Assembly (NCBI GenBank): GCA_000996205.1
Contig: LBYO01000004.1
Span: 4,051 to 68,050, forward strand
Direction: 5' to 3'
DNA: 64,000 bases
Source: Parcubacteria group bacterium GW2011_GWA1_40_21
GTDB taxonomy: Bacteria; Patescibacteriota; Minisyncoccia; Phycocordibacterales; GWA1-40-21
Shown here: one piece after another, positions 20,023 through 38,126 of the stretch
Numbering within the stretch: position 1 is the stretch's first letter
Layout: the number at the start of each line of letters is the position of its first letter
The notes under the pieces: model-generated
What the model saw: the letters and a program-made list of their open reading frames with translations, nothing else
What the model was told of the DNA's origin: nothing
Database searches by the model: none
Made by a program: the position numbers and the translations under genes

Positions 20023-21384
20023 TTAATATTCTCGGATGTGCTCGGCATAAAAATCTGAAGTCATTCTCTCTCCCTCCCCCTTGTCTTCTTTGATGGTTTT
20101 GAATGGCTGTTTTTTTTGAATGTAAGAATCCATTTCCGCTATTTTCCGCCATATAAAATCCATCGCCTTATTCAATTCAAATTTTTCAATATATCCAACA
20201 AACTCTTTTGGAAATTCAAATTTTTCTTCCCCGAGTATGGGATTTTCCAAATAAGTCTCAGCCATTTTCATTATCCTGCTCGTTAAATTGCCGAGTCCAT
20301 TGGCCAAATTGGCGTTATAAATGTCTTTGAATTTGTCTACAGTAAAATCACTGTCCTCAAAAGGGTTCAATTCGCGGGCGAAATAATAACGCAAAGCGTC
20401 GGCGCCATATTCCGAAACAATACTCGCGGGACTTACGACATTGCCGAGACTCTTGCTTATTTTTTGTCCACCGATTGTGATAAAACCATTCACAATAATT
20501 TGCTTTGAAATTGGAAGTCTGGCCGCAAGAAGCATCGCTTGCCACATTGCCGCCTGCTGGCGGAGATTGTCTTTACCGCAATACTGCGTGACTGGCCACC
20601 ATCTGTGGAATTTGTCCGTATCGTCTGGCCAGCCGATGGCAGAAATATAATTCACAAGTGCATCAAACCACACATACATTATGTGTTCCGGATCATTCGG
20701 AACAGCAACCCCCCACGGCATTTTGCTCTTTAGACGCGATATGCTGAAATCTTCAAGTCCCCTTTCAACAAAAGCCTTGACTTCATTGAGCCGTGAAGAT
20801 GGAATTACAAAATCGGGATTATTTTCATAAAGCTCCAAAAGCGGTTTCTGAAATTTGGAAAAAGCGAAAAAATAATTTTCCTCTTCAATAATTTCAATCT
20901 TTTGATTCGAATGAATAGGACAACATCCGTTTTCCAATTCCGATTCAGTCTTTTCCAGCTCGCATCCTACACAGTATTTCACTTTGTAATTTTTCTTGTA
21001 TATATAGCCGTTTTTATCGCACACTTTCCAAAATTCCTGCGCGGAATTTTTGTGCCTTTCGTCGGTCGTTCTCACAAAATTTATGCCTTCCGACAAATTC
21101 AAGACGCAAATGAGGTCTTTGAATTTTTCAGCATAACCGTCCACATACTTCTGCGGATCCTGCCCGATTTCAAGAGCTTTGCGATAAATTTTCAAACCGT
21201 GTTCGTCCGTACCGGTATTAAAAAACACATTGAAACCTGCAAACTTCTTATAGCGAGCGATAATATCCGCCCGCGTGATCTCCATAGCAAAACCGATATG
21301 CGGATCGGCATTCACATAAGGCAATGTCGTCGTTATGTAAAAATTTTTACCGGCAATTGAGTTTTTCATCTCTCCTCTTTTCAT
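20023..21384 (-). CDS. metG: methionyl-tRNA synthetase (short form)
   Basis: 'PYVNADPHIGF' (HIGH region), 'NTGTDEHGLKI' (MetRS hallmark), a Cys4 zinc knuckle and 'KISKSLGN' (KMSKS). Confidence 0.85.
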   Translation of the reverse strand: MKRGEMKNSIAGKNFYITTTLPYVNADPHIGFAMEITRADIIARYKKFAGFNVFFNTGTDEHGLKIYRKALEIGQDPQKYVDGYAEKFKDLICVLNLSEGINFVRTTDERHKNSAQEFWKVCDKNGYIYKKNYKVKYCVGCELEKTESELENGCCPIHSNQKIEIIEEENYFFAFSKFQKPLLELYENNPDFVIPSSRLNEVKAFVERGLEDFSISRLKSKMPWGVAVPNDPEHIMYVWFDALVNYISAIGWPDDTDKFHRWWPVTQYCGKDNLRQQAAMWQAMLLAARLPISKQIIVNGFITIGGQKISKSLGNVVSPASIVSEYGADALRYYFARELNPFEDSDFTVDKFKDIYNANLANGLGNLTSRIMKMAETYLENPILGEEKFEFPKEFVGYIEKFELNKAMDFIWRKIAEMDSYIQKKQPFKTIKEDKGEGERMTSDFYAEHIREY

Positions 21385-21414
21385 ATTTTTGTCTTATACG
21401 CGCCCTTTTACACA

Positions 21415-31188: not shown

Positions 31189-34100
31189 TTACGCTTCTAT
31201 CTTGGCTTTTATCACAAAGCCGTCGGTGGAGATTTCCTGTCCGTCTTCCACAACGGCGTTGAATTCCAGTTTTTCTATGCCTGCTGATTTTTTGATTTCC
31301 TCGGCGAATTTTTCCATAAATTCTCTGGCATGGATTTCAGCTTGAACATACAAAATTATTTTCTGGCTGGTATTAAGACCGGCTTTCTTTCTCAAATCTT
31401 GAAGACCGCGAATCAAATCTCTCAAACTACCCTCTTCTTTGAGCTCGGGCGATATTTCCGTATCCAACTCAACCTCGCCTAAAATTTTCTCATCAAAAAT
31501 AATCTCTTTGACATTCAGCTCATCTTTGATCAAATCCAACATTTCTTTCTCCACTTTATGGACTTTATAACTTTTGACTTTTAACTTTTTTAACGCCTGT
31601 CTCACTTTTATATTCGCCTTTGCTCTAGCCTCCAACCCCAAAGAAACAATTCTCCTAACCTCCTCCATATCCTCAATTAAACTTTCGACTTTCGACTTTC
31701 GACTTTCGACTACTTTTACCCATTCTTCCAAATGAACGCTCTCTTTATCCTTTCCTTTGCCGTTCAATTTTTGGTACAAATATTCCGCCAAAAAAGGAGT
31801 GAATGGCGCCATAATTTTTGACAGTTCGGTCAAAACATACTTCATCGTGGCAAGCGCGAATTGTTTGTCTTTATAGTCATCTCCCTTTACCCTTTCTCTT
31901 GATCTGCGGACATACCAAGTGGAAAATTCATTGATAAAATCTTTGATCGGGCGGCCAGATTTGACGGTATTGTAATTTTCAAGCCCCTCCGTCACTTCAT
32001 TTATAAGAATATTGAGCTTGGCGAGAATCCATCCATCAAGAACATTTTCACTGTCTTCGCATTTCGTCTTGCCGTCATACTCGCCTTGATAAAGTTCAAA
32101 AAAATTGAATGTGTTAAGAAGAATATTTATCACTTTATTGTGAGCGTCCTTGATTTCCTCATCCGCAAATTTTATGTCTTCCGCCTGCATTATCGGACTG
32201 GTCATAAGATAATAACGCAAAGCATCCGCTCCGTACTTGTCCATATTCAGCATCGGGTCGGTGTAATTGCCTTTGGACTTGGACATTTTGCTCCCGTCTT
32301 CGGCTAAAATTGTTCCGGTGGTAATGACATTTTTGAAACTTGCATCGTCAAATAAGATGCCCGAAATGGTGTGCATATAGTAAAACCATGTTCTTGTTTG
32401 AGCCACATATTCGGTCACAAAATCACCCGACGGAAAACGGCTGCCGAGTTCTTTTTCATTTTCAAACGGATAATGATATTCGGCAAACGGCATCGCACCA
32501 GATTCAAACCATCCGTCAATAACTTCCGGCACTCTTTTCGTTTCGCCGAGACAGTCTTCACCACTGCAAACCAGATCAACTTCATCTATATAAGGCCTGT
32601 GCAAATCAAGCTCGTAATTTTCATTGTGCGGAAGCGGAACGAAGTCCAGTTTTCTTATCTCCGCGTTTTCAATAAAAAATTCTCCGTTTCCCCGCATAAG
32701 AAGCGCCTCTTTCGCATTCATCCCGAATGATCCGGCGAACAAAAGCCATGCAGGAGAGTCGTGAGTAACAATCAAAATATTTTTATTGTTGTGCCGTTTT
32801 TCAATGTCGTAAATAAAATCGGCGGTTCTTTTTTTAATATCGGAGTAATTTTCCCCCTGCGGAGTATTTTTTATAAATCGTTCTTCAAACGAAGTAAAAT
32901 AGTCGGTGTATGCCGATATAGATTTTCCATCAAATGTTCCCGCGTTCAATTCTCCGACTCTATTTTCAAGAATAATGTCAGATGGCTCAATTTGGAGCTT
33001 CCGTGCGATAATTTCCGCAGTTTCTTTTGTCCTCACAAAAGGCGAGCTGAAGATGATGTCAATTTTTTCAACTATCAAATCGTCCCCCGCTTTCGCCGCC
33101 TGCTCTCTGCCTTTCTCCGTCAAATGACTTGAATTTTTAGAATCGGAACTTATGAAAGCTTTTACATTGTTATCCGCTTCTCCGTGTCGAACCACAAAAT
33201 ATTTATTGCCGGATTTTTTTGTTTTTTTCTTTAATTCATCCACAGAACCGACAAGTTCAATTTTTCCGCATTTCTCGCATTTCCAAATCGGCAGAGGTGA
33301 GGCCCAATAGCGATTGCGGGAAATATTCCAATCCGGAGCGCTTTCTATATTATTCAGAAATCTGCCGTGTTTTAGGTGGTCTGGAAACCAATTTATTTTT
33401 TCATTAAGCTCCTTCAGGCGATTTTTCACTTTTTGGATGTTGATAAACCACGAAGAAAGCGCGCTGTAATAAAGCGGCGTTTCGCAACGATGGCAATGCG
33501 GATAGGAGTGAGTATGCGCCTGTTTGGCGAAAATCAATCCTCTTTTTTCCAAATCTTCTTTGATGTATTTCTCTCCTTTCTTCAAATAAAAACCTTGGAT
33601 AAATTCCGGCGCTTCTTTGTTGAAATGACCGCTTTGGTCTAAAAGCGGAATTGTCGGCAAATCGTATTTTATGCCGATATTATAATCGTCTTCCCCATGC
33701 ATCGGAGCGATGTGGACGATGCCGGTTCCGTCTTCCGTGGTCACGAAATCAGCCGAAACGACATAATGCGATTTTTTATTGAAATTTTTTACCGCCGGAA
33801 TTTCATAAAGTGGTTCGTATTCAAGTCCGACAAGTTTTTCACCGGAAAATTCACTTATTATTTCATAAGGTTCCGACAAAATACCGAGTCTTTCTTTCGC
33901 CAATATTAGATTTTCTCTGTCTTCAGTTTTTTCCGCCTGAGGCGGATCCGCCTCAGGCGGAAGATTTAATCCGTCAGCTGACGGATTAGATTTTAGATTA
34001 AGCTTGCAATAAATCAGCTCCTGATTTATTGCAAGCGCAACATTGCCCGACAATGTCCACGGCGTAGTCGTCCAAGCCAAAAGATAAGTATTTTCCGGCA

Positions 34101-34773
34101 AGTTGTGTTTTTTCGGATTTTTAACTTTAAACTTCACTATCACCGCTTCTTCCGTCACCGTTTTATAACTGTTATCCATCGCCACTTCCGCTTTGGCCAA
34201 AGGAGTCTCGCATCTCGGGCAATACATCAAAACCTTCCGACCTTCATAGAGCAAATCTTTTTTGTGGATTTCTTTTAACGCCCACCAAACGCTTTCAATG
34301 TAAGAATTGTCCATCGTCATATAGGAATTATCAAATTCCACCCAGCGGCCGATTCTCTCCACATAATTTTTCCAGTCGTGGGCAGTTTCTAAAACAGCGG
34401 AACGGCAAGTCTCGTTGAACTTTCCAACCCCCATCGCTTCAATTTCTTTTTTGCTCTTGAGCCCGAGCCTTTTTTCAATCATATTTTCAATCGGCAAGCC
34501 GTGGCAATCCCAGCCCCACCTTCGGCGAACATGATACCCCCGCATTGTCTTATAGCGAGGAATCACATCCTTAGCAACGGAAGAAAGCAAACTGCCGTAA
34601 TGAGGCAGACCTGTCGCAAAAGGCGGTCCATCATAAAAGACAAACTCGCCTTTCGGTGAATCCTTTGCCAAAGTTTTTTCAAAAATTTTATTTTCTTTCC
34701 AAAAACGGAGAGTTTCTTCCTCCCTTTTAGCCGTTTCGCTTTTGTTGTCTTTTTCCTTGTCGTTATTGGTCAT
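31189..34773 (-). CDS. ileS: isoleucyl-tRNA synthetase with an embedded histidine-phosphatase (PGAM-like) domain
   Basis: Carries 'PPFATGLPHYGSLL' (HIGH), 'WTTTPWTLSGN' (editing CP1), 'KMSKSKGN' and a zinc knuckle 'IWKCEKCGK'. Residues ~516-722 are 'YFVVRHGEADNN…FSSPFVRTKETAEII…ENRVGELNAGTFDG…ILIVTHDSPAWLL', a complete histidine-phosphatase core placed before 'LDLHRPYIDE'. Confidence 0.9.
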   Translation of the reverse strand: MTNNDKEKDNKSETAKREEETLRFWKENKIFEKTLAKDSPKGEFVFYDGPPFATGLPHYGSLLSSVAKDVIPRYKTMRGYHVRRRWGWDCHGLPIENMIEKRLGLKSKKEIEAMGVGKFNETCRSAVLETAHDWKNYVERIGRWVEFDNSYMTMDNSYIESVWWALKEIHKKDLLYEGRKVLMYCPRCETPLAKAEVAMDNSYKTVTEEAVIVKFKVKNPKKHNLPENTYLLAWTTTPWTLSGNVALAINQELIYCKLNLKSNPSADGLNLPPEADPPQAEKTEDRENLILAKERLGILSEPYEIISEFSGEKLVGLEYEPLYEIPAVKNFNKKSHYVVSADFVTTEDGTGIVHIAPMHGEDDYNIGIKYDLPTIPLLDQSGHFNKEAPEFIQGFYLKKGEKYIKEDLEKRGLIFAKQAHTHSYPHCHRCETPLYYSALSSWFINIQKVKNRLKELNEKINWFPDHLKHGRFLNNIESAPDWNISRNRYWASPLPIWKCEKCGKIELVGSVDELKKKTKKSGNKYFVVRHGEADNNVKAFISSDSKNSSHLTEKGREQAAKAGDDLIVEKIDIIFSSPFVRTKETAEIIARKLQIEPSDIILENRVGELNAGTFDGKSISAYTDYFTSFEERFIKNTPQGENYSDIKKRTADFIYDIEKRHNNKNILIVTHDSPAWLLFAGSFGMNAKEALLMRGNGEFFIENAEIRKLDFVPLPHNENYELDLHRPYIDEVDLVCSGEDCLGETKRVPEVIDGWFESGAMPFAEYHYPFENEKELGSRFPSGDFVTEYVAQTRTWFYYMHTISGILFDDASFKNVITTGTILAEDGSKMSKSKGNYTDPMLNMDKYGADALRYYLMTSPIMQAEDIKFADEEIKDAHNKVINILLNTFNFFELYQGEYDGKTKCEDSENVLDGWILAKLNILINEVTEGLENYNTVKSGRPIKDFINEFSTWYVRRSRERVKGDDYKDKQFALATMKYVLTELSKIMAPFTPFLAEYLYQKLNGKGKDKESVHLEEWVKVVESRKSKVESLIEDMEEVRRIVSLGLEARAKANIKVRQALKKLKVKSYKVHKVEKEMLDLIKDELNVKEIIFDEKILGEVELDTEISPELKEEGSLRDLIRGLQDLRKKAGLNTSQKIILYVQAEIHAREFMEKFAEEIKKSAGIEKLEFNAVVEDGQEISTDGFVIKAKIEA
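33933..34036. repeat. three consecutive perfect palindromes inside ileS coding sequence
   Basis: ccgcctgaggcggatccgcctcaggcgg (33933-33960), aatccgtcagctgacggatt (33968-33987) and gcttgcaataaatcagctcctgatttattgcaagc (34002-34036). Together they encode …INQELIYCKLNLKSNPSADGLNLPPEADPPQAEKTEDR…. Confidence 0.7.
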
Positions 34774-35489: not shown

Positions 35490-37256
35490 CTACATCCTCT
35501 CCGGAACTTGAATTCCCAGAAGATTGAGGCCGTTTTTCATTGTCGCGGCGAAAGAGGCGGTGAGAGCAACCTTGTAAGGAGAAATTTCGTCGTTAGTATC
35601 CACTATCTTGTGTTTGGCGTAAAAACTGTTGAATGATCCGGCAAGTTCAATCAAGTAAGAAGCGATATAGTGAGGAGAATATTCCTTCCCCGCCCTCTCC
35701 ACGATTTCAGGAAAGCGATAAAGCAATCTTTCCAATTCTGATGTTTCGGTGACGACTTTTTTTGCGGAAGCCTTTATCCCCTCTCCTTTGGCTTTCTCCA
35801 AAACAGATTTCGCTCTCGCGTAAGAATATTGAAGATACGGTCCGGAATCTCCCTCAAAAGAAATTGATTTGTCAAAATCATATACTATGTCGCTTCCAGT
35901 CGTATGTTTTAGTATTGAATATTTTATCGCTCCGATTGACACTTTTTCAATAATTTCTTTTTCCATCTCTTCGTTGTAATTTCTGTCTTTGATTTTTTCC
36001 TCCACGAGTTTTTGAGTATCTGTCATAAGCGACTCCGCCGTGATAACATCGCCCGTCCTTGATGACATTTTACCGCTTGGAAGCCGAAGCATTCCGTGAG
36101 AAATATGCTTTGTTTTTTCCGCCAAGTCCGGAAAAACAATTTCCATCGCCTTCAGCAAAACCTTAAAATAGTCATTTATCTCATTACCTGTCACGACTAT
36201 TGAAACATCGTATTGATAATGTTCATCGTATTTTATTTTCGCCAGTCCGAGCTCTTTGGCTTCGTAAGTCGGCAACCCTTCCGAATTTATGAAAACCCTC
36301 GTGTGCAATCCGTATTTCTCTCCTTTAAACACGATAGCGCCGTCACTTTTCTCAAAAACGCCATTCTTCAAATTTTCCTCCACTATCTTCTTGCCAAAAT
36401 CCCCTGTCTCTCTTTCAAAGAAAATGAAATCAAATTCCGTGCCCAGCTTTTTGTAAATTTCTCCAAAATGCTTAAGGGATACATCCTTACCCCAATCATA
36501 CAGTTTATTTATCTCATCATCGTTTCTATCATAAATTTTTTTGTTTATCACCTCAAGCTCTCCGCTCTCAATTGCTTTGTTTATTTCATCAACCCTTCTT
36601 TTAAAATCATCAATTCCGCTAAGTGATGAGAACGAACTCGAACCTAAAGAGTAAGACATCGCCAAAAATTTAACCTTGTTTGTCAACATAGCTTTATCAT
36701 CTGGCATTAAATCTCTTAGAGTTTTCATACCCAGGACAGCTTTTGCCACATGAAGCCCTACATCGCCTTGATAGCACGCCCTTTTCACTTCCGCGCCGTG
36801 AAATCCAATGATTCTGGACAGAGATTCTCCGATGGTGTTGCTCATCAAATGTCCGATGTGAAATTCCTTGAAAGGATTCGGGTCTGTGTATTCAATCATT
36901 ACTTTCCGCCCTTTAAGCGATTCGTTCGCGCCAAAACTATCGCCTTCCGTAATCGCCTCGCCTACACTTTCCGCGAAAAATTCCTTTGATAGAAAAAAGT
37001 TAATAAAGCCGGCGCCGGCGACTTCCGCTTTTTCAATTTCTTTTATTTCGCGCTTCCTTATTTCCTCCGCTATCTTTTCCGCCAAATCTATCGGTTTCGT
37101 TTTTAATTCTTTGGCGTAAGCCAAAGCCGCATTGGAAGAATAATCGCCGAAGTTTAAATCAGTCGGGTGTTCCAAATGAATATCATCCGCCGTGATGGAT
37201 GGCATCTTTAGAGCTTCCTGTATTGTATTTTTAAGTTTTTCTTGAATCATAATCAT
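35490..37256 (-). CDS. argS: arginyl-tRNA synthetase
   Basis: 'FHIGHLMSNTIG' (HIGH), the N-terminal Add-1-like domain, the C-terminal DALR anticodon-binding domain 'SPHYIASYLIELAGSFNSFY' and the end '…LGIQVPERM'. Confidence 0.9.
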   Translation of the reverse strand: MIMIQEKLKNTIQEALKMPSITADDIHLEHPTDLNFGDYSSNAALAYAKELKTKPIDLAEKIAEEIRKREIKEIEKAEVAGAGFINFFLSKEFFAESVGEAITEGDSFGANESLKGRKVMIEYTDPNPFKEFHIGHLMSNTIGESLSRIIGFHGAEVKRACYQGDVGLHVAKAVLGMKTLRDLMPDDKAMLTNKVKFLAMSYSLGSSSFSSLSGIDDFKRRVDEINKAIESGELEVINKKIYDRNDDEINKLYDWGKDVSLKHFGEIYKKLGTEFDFIFFERETGDFGKKIVEENLKNGVFEKSDGAIVFKGEKYGLHTRVFINSEGLPTYEAKELGLAKIKYDEHYQYDVSIVVTGNEINDYFKVLLKAMEIVFPDLAEKTKHISHGMLRLPSGKMSSRTGDVITAESLMTDTQKLVEEKIKDRNYNEEMEKEIIEKVSIGAIKYSILKHTTGSDIVYDFDKSISFEGDSGPYLQYSYARAKSVLEKAKGEGIKASAKKVVTETSELERLLYRFPEIVERAGKEYSPHYIASYLIELAGSFNSFYAKHKIVDTNDEISPYKVALTASFAATMKNGLNLLGIQVPERM

Positions 37257-37445: not shown

Positions 37446-38126
37446 CTAGGACTTAACAATTCGCATTATTTTATCGTGAATTTCTTCAACAGACAGAAGT
37501 CTGCCGTCTTCCACGCAATTTATGAGTTTCCAGTCGTTCCTCTCTTTTGAGATTTTCGTGTAGACATCTATGACTTTCTGCTGATATTCCATATCTTTTT
37601 CGTGTCCGTCTTTAGCGCCCTTTGCGCTTTCGCCTCCGATGTAGGCGCGAGCTTCCTTTTTCTCCACGAGATGGGATGATATTTCAACGGGCACATAAAG
37701 ATAAATCACCAAAGTCGGTTTGGGAAGCTTCAGCTCGCCGTATTCCATCTGTTCAAGCCATGAAATAAACTCATCTCTTTTGTCTTCAGGAAGTTTTGAC
37801 GCTTGATGCCCGATATTGCTCGGAATGTATCTGTTGCAGATGACAACGCCTTTCTCAAGAGCTTTGTTGAGCTCATCTCTGGCGGCGATCCGATCAAGCG
37901 CGTAAGGAAGCGAAGCGATGTAAGGCGAAAGTAATAATGGGTCGCCGAACTCTCCTTTCAGATAGCGTCCCACTAGCTTGCCCGCCAAAGTTTTTTCATA
38001 TTGAGGAAAATCAAAAAAAGCGACTTTGGTTTCCTTGCTCAATCTGTCCACCAAAAGTTTCGCCTGCGTCCCCTTGCCCGCCCCGTCCCCACCTTCAATA
38101 ACGATAAATTTATGTTTTAATCCCAT
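37446..38126 (-). CDS. tmk: thymidylate kinase
   Basis: 'KFIVIEGGDGAGKGTQ' P-loop and the DRY-like region 'LDRIAARDE'. Length 226 aa. Confidence 0.85.
   Translation of the reverse strand: MGLKHKFIVIEGGDGAGKGTQAKLLVDRLSKETKVAFFDFPQYEKTLAGKLVGRYLKGEFGDPLLLSPYIASLPYALDRIAARDELNKALEKGVVICNRYIPSNIGHQASKLPEDKRDEFISWLEQMEYGELKLPKPTLVIYLYVPVEISSHLVEKKEARAYIGGESAKGAKDGHEKDMEYQQKVIDVYTKISKERNDWKLINCVEDGRLLSVEEIHDKIMRIVKS

Follow-up and report, generated by a model that had tools for sequence, protein, structure and literature searches.

Aminoacyl-tRNA synthetases (aaRS) are among the best-studied enzymes, and the catalytic domain known to be nested within them is the editing domain. Histidine phosphatases fused to other enzymes are already known as well, for example from the bifunctional RNase H/acid phosphatases, as are foreign domains within isoleucyl-tRNA synthetase (IleRS), for example in the family ileS_w_GNAT. 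MutT1 of Actinobacteria is an end-to-end fusion of a NUDIX and a His_Phos domain. In our full-text literature searches, we came across no account of an aaRS with a histidine phosphatase nested in it. Here we analyze such a case, the gene ileS of Parcubacteria group bacterium GW2011_GWA1_40_21, which encodes an IleRS with an apparently active histidine phosphatase inside its catalytic domain. The gene lies in a 64,000-nt stretch of contig LBYO01000004.1 (positions 4,051-68,050, forward strand; assembly GCA_000996205.1), hereafter called the window, to which all coordinates refer. The source organism, a groundwater bacterium, belongs to the GTDB lineage Bacteria; Patescibacteriota; Minisyncoccia; Phycocordibacterales; GWA1-40-21, and its genome of 0.76 Mb is estimated to be 97.7% complete.

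The nested phosphatase domain

The gene and the phosphatase domain comprise the following features:

31189..34773, minus strand: ileS, a single uninterrupted open reading frame (ORF) for a 1194-aa type-2 IleRS with nested phosphatase
32638..33213, minus strand: branch-1 histidine phosphatase domain, residues 521-712 (translation checked; Pfam His_Phos_1)
33184..33189, minus strand: R529-H530 from the RHG motif, both without variation in 100 IleRS relatives
32761..33168, minus strand: span of the other catalytic residues, also invariant in these 100 relatives
33166-33168, minus strand: N536 of the catalytic set
33031-33033, minus strand: R581 of the catalytic set
32950-32952, minus strand: E608 of the catalytic set, predicted proton donor
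32761-32763, minus strand: H671 of the catalytic set

A first-pass annotation of the window, made from the sequence alone, had claimed a complete histidine phosphatase inside IleRS in a continuous frame of 1194 aa. The frame is indeed uninterrupted, and Pfam, NCBIfam, an alignment with Thermus IleRS (1ILE), residue conservation, an AlphaFold2 (AF2) model and Foldseek all agree with the claim. The profile search proposed along with it gave a Pfam His_Phos_1 match at residues 526-691 with 110.6 bits against a gathering cut-off of 21.7 bits (E 1e-31), and the excised segment reached 113 bits. This is the sole His_Phos_1 match in the source genome. In the alignment with 1ILE, Thermus residue 482 corresponds to residue 520 and Thermus residue 488 to residue 722. 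Thus about 200 residues stand where Thermus has about five; the first-pass annotation had given ~200 in place of ~10 for the zinc-knuckle site. In the CP3 zinc knuckle, the insertion point separates the two cysteine pairs, C499/C502 and C736/C741 (Thermus C461/C464 and C502/C504). Since PLPHN..DLHRPY matches the Thermus sequence and thus belongs to the host, the insert proper comprises residues 521-712 (32638-33213), and not residues ~516-722 (32608-33228) as first assigned.

The four catalytic motifs listed at first pass were found to hold R529-H530-G531, R581, E608 and H671. Across 100 full-length IleRS relatives, R529, H530, N536, R581, E608 and H671 are invariant despite a mean insert identity of 48%, and G531 is present in 99 of the 100. 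G555, S577 and E641 are invariant as well, followed by T585 (99/100) and R649 (97/100). Based on established knowledge of the histidine phosphatase superfamily, we take H530 to be the phospho-accepting nucleophile. Mean pairwise identity amounts to 0.48 for the insert, 0.52 for the CP1 editing domain and 0.41 for the C-terminal domain. When 92 nested and free His_Phos domains were compared across hosts, R529-H530 was kept in 91, the exception having a gap at this place, and the other catalytic residues showed no or almost no variation in any host class or among the free forms. Judged from these alignments, the phosphatase domain is under purifying selection.

Modeled alone, as had been suggested to assess independent folding, the insert reached a pLDDT of 92.5 and a pTM of 0.90. 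The best Foldseek match of this model is PspA (4ij6; TM 0.75-0.78, E 2e-15), and GpgP, PhoE, CobC, Entamoeba PSP and a riboflavin-pathway phosphatase (HFP) are further top matches. The proton-donor region reads 'RExxxGxFDG', which is of the phosphatase type and differs from the mutase 'ERHYG'. Among the NCBIfam phosphatase models, dPGM_arch (NF038349; 90.4 bits, cut-off 225), CobC (TIGR03162; 73.9 bits, cut-off 162.9) and PspA (NF045917; 70.5 bits, cut-off 350) match best, all below their cut-offs, while the phosphoglycerate mutase model TIGR01258 scored 25 bits (cut-off 81.7) and SixA (TIGR00249) 36.6 bits (cut-off 74.5), the latter with its N-terminal third only. Because every NCBIfam equivalog stays below its cut-off, neither a subfamily nor, with it, a substrate can be transferred to the insert. 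Consequently, the labels 'PGAM' and 'SixA-like' used at first pass were too specific.

Taken together, sequence and model depict the insert as a complete, independently folding and apparently active histidine phosphatase. The nested domains are acidic (pI ~6), equal the free forms in pI and net charge, and show no basic patch signature. Given this equality, an adaptation of the nested domains to RNA binding was rejected.

A docking prediction between insert and host scored 0.47, with 0.11 for the best of three controls; the runs agreed in at least 88% of contacts, and the pLDDT of the partners was at least 85. In the calibration of this method, 58 of 80 solved complexes and 2 of 110 mismatched pairs passed the mark, and scores up to 0.60 comprise only seven of those 80 complexes together with both passing mismatches. 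Since the value falls into this weak range, we draw no conclusion from it.

Could the architecture be an artifact? An assembly chimera, which had been raised at first pass, was rejected: a 988-nt contig from a public groundwater metagenome run covers positions 32464-33451, and thereby both junctions, without any difference, and thousands of independent contigs show the same architecture. In addition, a second sample tiles this region. Among the public runs listed for the locus there was no RNA dataset. An intein was rejected as well, since neither a Hint/intein Pfam match nor a Cys, Ser or Thr after the host 'HN' was found. This 'HN' (residues 716-717) belongs to the host and aligns with Thermus 'PLPEPFDPHRPY', and the residue that follows is variable, being Glu here.

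The host synthetase and its neighborhood

The host and the adjacent synthetase gene are organized as follows:

33214..34773, minus strand: N-terminal host part, residues 1-520, with the first Rossmann half, CP core, CP1 editing domain, CP2 and first CP3 half (C499/C502); matches Thermus IleRS residues 11-482
31192..32637, minus strand: C-terminal host part, residues 713-1194, with the remaining CP3 (PLPHN..DLHRPY, C736/C741), second Rossmann half, anticodon-binding domain and DUF5915; matches Thermus IleRS residues 488-820
34591..34602, minus strand: HIGH signature, H58-Y-G-S61, with Ser in place of the fourth-position His
32275-32289, minus strand: KMSKS, residues 829-833, intact
35490..37256, minus strand: argS, arginyl-tRNA synthetase (ArgRS) of 588 aa, upstream of ileS (Pfam Arg_tRNA_synt_N, tRNA-synt_1d, DALR_1)

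The host looks like a functional IleRS and the only one of the cell. It matches NCBIfam ileS (TIGR00392) with 836.9 bits (cut-off 621.4) in two pieces that flank the insert, and it is the sole IleRS match above cut-off in the 97.7%-complete genome. The Pfam class I catalytic domain tRNA-synt_1 is split in two around His_Phos_1, and Anticodon_1 (residues 913-1062) and DUF5915 (residues 1101-1193), the C-terminal domain of type-2 enzymes, follow. The best matches in the PDB are IleRS of Thermus (1ILE) and IleRS2 of Priestia megaterium (8C8U), with E-values of 7e-210 to 1e-204, whereas IleRS1 of S. aureus is matched far more weakly (E 1e-86). In the AF2 model of the full-length protein (pLDDT 88.4, pTM 0.81), disorder is limited to the N-terminus and to CP1 residues 264-283.

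HIGH, CP1 and KMSKS had all been called intact. This holds for KMSKS and for the editing residues T235-T237, H354 and D363, which are invariant in 100/100 relatives, but the HIGH signature reads HYGS. The same form occurs in 11 of the 100 relatives, and HYGH is the commonest among the eight commonest variants listed (46 relatives). GIHH, a GXHH variant, is found in 14. A published study links the GXHH variant of IleRS2 to mupirocin hyper-resistance (PMC10485003). All four zinc-knuckle cysteines are present in the window, i.e. C499 and C502 at 33268-33279 and C736 and C741 at 32551-32568. The complete set occurs in 70/100 relatives, and about 28 have lost it and kept the phosphatase insert. The CP2-3 linker of the host carries the motif APDWNISRNRYW; the corresponding linker in yeast lines the tRNA-CCA/reveromycin pocket (PMC7955072). 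Published structures place the zinc-binding motif in CP3, which follows directly after the CP2-3 linker (PMC7191050, PMC7955072).

A second, small and lineage-specific insert was observed in CP1 (window 33904-33999, residues 259-290). Its 32 residues are of low complexity (NLKSNPSADGLNLPPEADPPQAEK...), not found in Thermus IleRS, and predicted to be disordered (pLDDT <50 for residues 264-283).

The neighborhood of ileS is rich in translation genes, with argS directly upstream and an ORF resembling methionyl-tRNA synthetase (MetRS) at 20026-21393 (minus strand), about 10 kb away. A thymidylate kinase gene (37449-38126, minus strand) is located beyond argS. The ORFs that flank ileS (124 and 179 aa) gave no Pfam match.

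Distribution among synthetases

When a database of 5.8 billion proteins was searched with the insert, at least 2,592 clusters (656-2090 aa) matched. The best 120 of these 2,592 are all IleRS with His_Phos_1, and the organisms named for them are Parcubacteria, Paceibacterota, Wolfebacteria, Nomurabacteria or Taylorbacteria. With each species represented by a single genome, a pattern scan detected the nested architecture in at least 556 genomes. Among 80 of its loci, all titles that give a lineage are Patescibacterial, except for one 8-kb contig labelled Spirochaetia. A survey of IleRS from Patescibacteria (Candidate Phyla Radiation), as the first-pass annotation had recommended, thus finds the insert to be widespread. 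Its statement that this is no known IleRS architecture is in line with our literature searches, which yielded no paper on it, but the architecture itself is common. The same is true for the question whether the segment is a known annotated subdomain: it is frequent among IleRS relatives, yet database records name the proteins merely 'isoleucine-tRNA ligase' or 'class I tRNA ligase family protein'.

The insert was furthermore searched against 400 other genomes of the phylum, and long ORFs were then typed. IleRS with the domain at the same CP3 site was found in the window's class and in other classes. In family f20, IleRS (L023, L026, L027; 1466-1477 aa) bears two tandem His_Phos copies at this site. 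Since these fall into different clades of the domain tree, the second copy is not a recent duplicate of the first. In family f90, the domain occupies a second site (site B) of IleRS, just before the anticodon-binding domain and away from CP3. In valyl-tRNA synthetase (ValRS) hosts, it lies at the homologous CP3 position or close to it; one of them also contains a GNAT domain, and another (L141:1875-5708:-; 1278 aa) has two tandem copies at the CP3 site. The class II alanyl-tRNA synthetase (AlaRS) hosts (family f56; L030, L031, L032, L142; 775-800 aa) have His_Phos_1 at profile position ~213 of the catalytic domain. Nesting in AlaRS is a rarity: the large protein database contains only five such clusters.

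As a neutral sample, 141 genomes, each at least 90% complete, were searched with the Pfam His_Phos_1 model. The domain is present in 95 of them and resides in a long ORF in 22, the hosts being IleRS (12 genomes), ValRS (5) and AlaRS (4); one genome of the sample has both IleRS and ValRS hosts. Genome G147 holds three His_Phos copies in these two aaRS and no free copy. The remaining 46 genomes of the sample lack His_Phos_1, as does the relative G077; the function is therefore dispensable or replaceable. The sole long host other than an aaRS is a protein of 560 aa in G063 (L140:1916-3595:-), a D-2-hydroxyacid dehydrogenase with C-terminal His_Phos_1, and thus an end-to-end fusion. Internal nesting was seen only in aaRS, namely IleRS, ValRS and AlaRS; the catalytic folds of these hosts are of two unrelated kinds, and the insertion sites number at least three. 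Usually one aaRS per genome carries the phosphatase, and which one varies.

Other foreign domains were observed in these synthetases as well. The IleRS of locus L020 (genome G314; L020:1156-5400:-) has His_Phos at site B and, in frame within the CP1 region, an IS200-like Y1 transposase domain (PF01797, residues 299-375, E 6e-10). One site-B IleRS holds a nested GNAT domain. Such a domain is nested in the IleRS of G147 (L019, residues 666-764) and in the ValRS of G116 (L028, residues 531-636), directly before His_Phos in the latter. GNAT and His_Phos appear to move jointly around these synthetases. For two class I synthetases, P0177 and P0197 (1251-1265 aa), a precomputed Pfam list gives His_Phos_1 together with the serine hydrolase PF06821, which hints at further nested domains.

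Free genes and evolution

Close to the insert clades, the phosphatase also occurs as a free gene, and nested and free states alternate among near relatives. Members of family f16, which belongs to the window's class, possess an IleRS without insert and a free His_Phos gene (189-213 aa) upstream on the same strand, between an argS homolog and ileS. The counterpart order in the window is argS, the 124-aa ORF and the insert-bearing ileS. In genome G325, an insert-bearing ileS is followed by a free GNAT gene (L058:3538-4008:-) and a free His_Phos gene with overlapping stops. In family f81, a free copy is separated from ileS by between a few hundred bases and 3 kb, and the IleRS of G077 is devoid of the insert. 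In two f16 loci, a protein of 247-255 aa with a weak alternative-oxidase (di-iron) match is encoded between free His_Phos and ileS (L056:4514-5278:+ and L055:7809-8549:-).

A search around 40 free His_Phos genes from other families for six aaRS types, i.e. IleRS, ValRS, leucyl-tRNA synthetase (LeuRS), MetRS, ArgRS and AlaRS, found none of these six within 6 kb. A general linkage of free His_Phos genes to aaRS was rejected on this basis; such adjacency is a peculiarity of lineages close to the insert clades. Six loci of five other Patescibacterial families (L162, L165, L169, L170, L172, L181) have free His_Phos in a cluster of the order PPDK, enolase, His_Phos and, in part, PfkB kinase. These forms of 213-251 aa are probably phosphoglycerate mutases, distant from the insert clade. 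Six further free His_Phos genes adjoin a NUDIX hydrolase gene.

In the domain tree, which is poorly resolved, nested and free forms interleave. In the host tree, calculated with the insert columns removed, insert-free and site-B IleRS fall among the site-A IleRS with strong support. In the unrooted tree, this placement would favor an early insertion with subsequent loss, fission or relocation. The host tree also disagrees with the genome kinship labels: one f16 IleRS (L054) stands apart from L055 and L056, and IleRS of other classes (L015, L018) group with that of the window. Transfer of ileS between Patescibacteria, or else a limited resolution of the tree, may account for this.

Possible function

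We lean, with some caution, toward reading the locus as two enzymes in one chain: a working IleRS and an autonomous phosphomonoesterase module that would act on a small molecule. The mechanism is most likely the one that is standard for the superfamily: His530 would attack the terminal phosphate of the substrate, held by Arg529, Arg581, Asn536 and His671. Glu608 would protonate the leaving group, and the phospho-histidine intermediate would then be hydrolyzed. The substrate would most likely be a small phosphorylated metabolite or nucleotide, and an intermediate of the IleRS reaction is an unlikely one. A small-molecule phosphomonoesterase probably fits best to the relatives of the domain, which act on small molecules, to an acidity like that of the free forms, to a single host that varies between genomes, and to the free and absent states in close kin. 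The nesting would then represent a Rosetta-stone type fusion. Since the same phosphatase occurs free beside ileS, or in ValRS or AlaRS, and usually in one host per genome, we infer that the fusion mainly secures one copy that is tethered to an aaRS and made together with it.

Several observations weigh against this small-molecule reading. All internal nestings are in aaRS, with two unrelated catalytic folds and at least three sites, a pattern that co-expression alone would hardly explain and that hints at a direct link to aminoacylation. G147 has three copies in two aaRS and no free one; CP3 comes immediately after the CP2-3 linker, which lines the tRNA CCA pocket; and some relatives (G077; 46 of the 141 sampled genomes) manage without any His_Phos_1. 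Due to the restriction to aaRS and the three copies in two aaRS of one genome, a role at the acceptor end or the nucleotide site is kept as the main rival. Here the phosphatase would assist aminoacylation in cis, as a repair or quality control activity, by stripping a blocking 2'/3'-phosphate or a pyrophosphate from the tRNA 3' end or by dephosphorylating a nucleotide in the synthetic site. We regard this as an unlikely, though serious, alternative. The nesting in IleRS (two sites), ValRS and class II AlaRS with several independent origins, the position of CP3 behind the CCA-pocket linker, the G147 copies in both IleRS and ValRS, and the free genes beside ileS in f16, f81 and G325 fit to it. 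However, usually only one aaRS per genome is equipped, its identity varies, and close relatives have the domain free or lack it. Site B lies beside the anticodon-binding domain and away from CP3, the nested domains are as acidic as the free ones, the close structural relatives all act on small molecules, and 0/40 free genes of other families are near any of the six searched aaRS. In addition, we know of no histidine phosphatase that acts on a tRNA end. One might nevertheless speculate that the phosphatases nested in IleRS, ValRS and AlaRS form a new synthetase-associated class that strips a 2'/3'-phosphate or pyrophosphate left at the tRNA acceptor end by nucleases or toxins, or acts on the nucleotide of the synthetic site, and that together with GNAT they provide a built-in layer of repair or detoxification in Patescibacteria. 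We consider this rather doubtful.

Alternatively, the insert might have a structural or regulatory role in which its catalysis does not matter, for example in IleRS dimerization, in replacing the stabilization given by the zinc knuckle, or in sensing a phosphorylated ligand. About 28 of the 100 relatives lost zinc-knuckle cysteines and kept the insert, and many free histidine phosphatases are dimers. Yet the complete set of catalytic residues stays invariant across deeply diverged sequences and in every host, which is unusual for a pure scaffold, and sister lineages have insert-free IleRS, so that we deem such a role quite improbable. The idea that the insert supplies a missing housekeeping enzyme, i.e. 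phosphoglycerate mutase, inorganic pyrophosphatase or phosphoserine phosphatase, is very improbable. It could draw on the best NCBIfam matches (dPGM_arch, CobC and PspA), on the insert being the sole His_Phos_1 of the genome, on free His_Phos in PPDK-enolase clusters of other families and on the fusion to 2-hydroxyacid dehydrogenase in one lineage. But the equivalog scores are far under their cut-offs (90 vs. 225, 74 vs. 163 and 70 vs. 350 bits), and the free genes linked to enolase lie far from the insert clade. Furthermore, the source genome encodes a family-I pyrophosphatase, an iPGM-type enzyme, enolase and a 2-hydroxyacid dehydrogenase, and SerC was searched for in this genome and not found. 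With its own pyrophosphatase, with an iPGM-type enzyme and enolase, and without SerC, such roles are not needed or not supported, and all three were rejected for the source genome. Finally, we give practically no credence to an artifact or selfish element, be it an assembly chimera, an intein or a functionless remnant of a mobile element. The in-frame transposase domain in the IleRS of L020 indicates that such genes tolerate foreign insertions, but a metagenome contig across both junctions, thousands of contigs of like architecture, the lack of a Hint match and of a nucleophile at position +1, and the strong conservation of the catalytic residues speak against it.

If the preferred reading of two enzymes in one chain is followed, the catalytic domain of the cell's sole IleRS would house a second, unrelated and apparently active enzyme. 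The nested phosphatases offer a natural and well-sampled system for the question how whole enzymes enter and leave essential ones, and the CP3 hairpin is a permissive site with a possible use in protein engineering. Via the Rosetta-stone link, it may become apparent that ultra-small symbiotic bacteria have a phosphatase function connected with tRNA charging. If the domain did act on tRNA ends or synthetase-bound nucleotides, it would represent a new kind of aaRS accessory activity.

Comparison with known systems

The host is collinear with IleRS of Thermus (1ILE) and IleRS2 of P. megaterium (8C8U) throughout, from the Rossmann fold to the C-terminal domain of type-2 enzymes. It differs from both by about 192 extra residues that form a second enzyme in the CP3 hairpin, by the disordered 32-aa insert in CP1 and by HYGS. 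The insert itself resembles small branch-1 phosphatases such as PspA/iPSP1 of Hydrogenobacter thermophilus (4IJ5/4IJ6), PhoE of Geobacillus stearothermophilus (1H2E), CobC and GpgP (Rv2419c) in fold (TM 0.75-0.78), size (~190-210 aa), catalytic residues and the phosphatase-type motif 'RExxxGxxxG'. In contrast to the insert, these enzymes are free-standing, and they share only 18-26% identity with it.

As in NCBIfam NF040702 (IleRS with N-acetyltransferase domain, ileS_w_GNAT), a small foreign enzyme domain resides in the catalytic part of IleRS. There, however, it is a GNAT domain and not a phosphatase, and according to profile offsets it is located in the CP1 region instead of CP3; the protein of the window reaches only 310 bits with this model (cut-off 1999). 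Bifunctional RNase H/acid phosphatases (Rv2228c type, NF005567) likewise join a CobC/PhoE-like phosphatase to an enzyme of nucleic acid or nucleotide metabolism, but they are Actinobacterial end-to-end fusions, whereas the phosphatase described here is nested in a catalytic domain and has an aaRS as its partner. With the CP1 editing domain of the class Ia synthetases IleRS, ValRS and LeuRS, the insert shares the nesting of a hydrolase domain in a loop of the Rossmann fold. While CP1 is an ancient domain of universal occurrence with mischarged tRNA as its substrate, the insert is lineage-specific, has free-standing homologs and is predicted to perform phosphomonoesterase chemistry.

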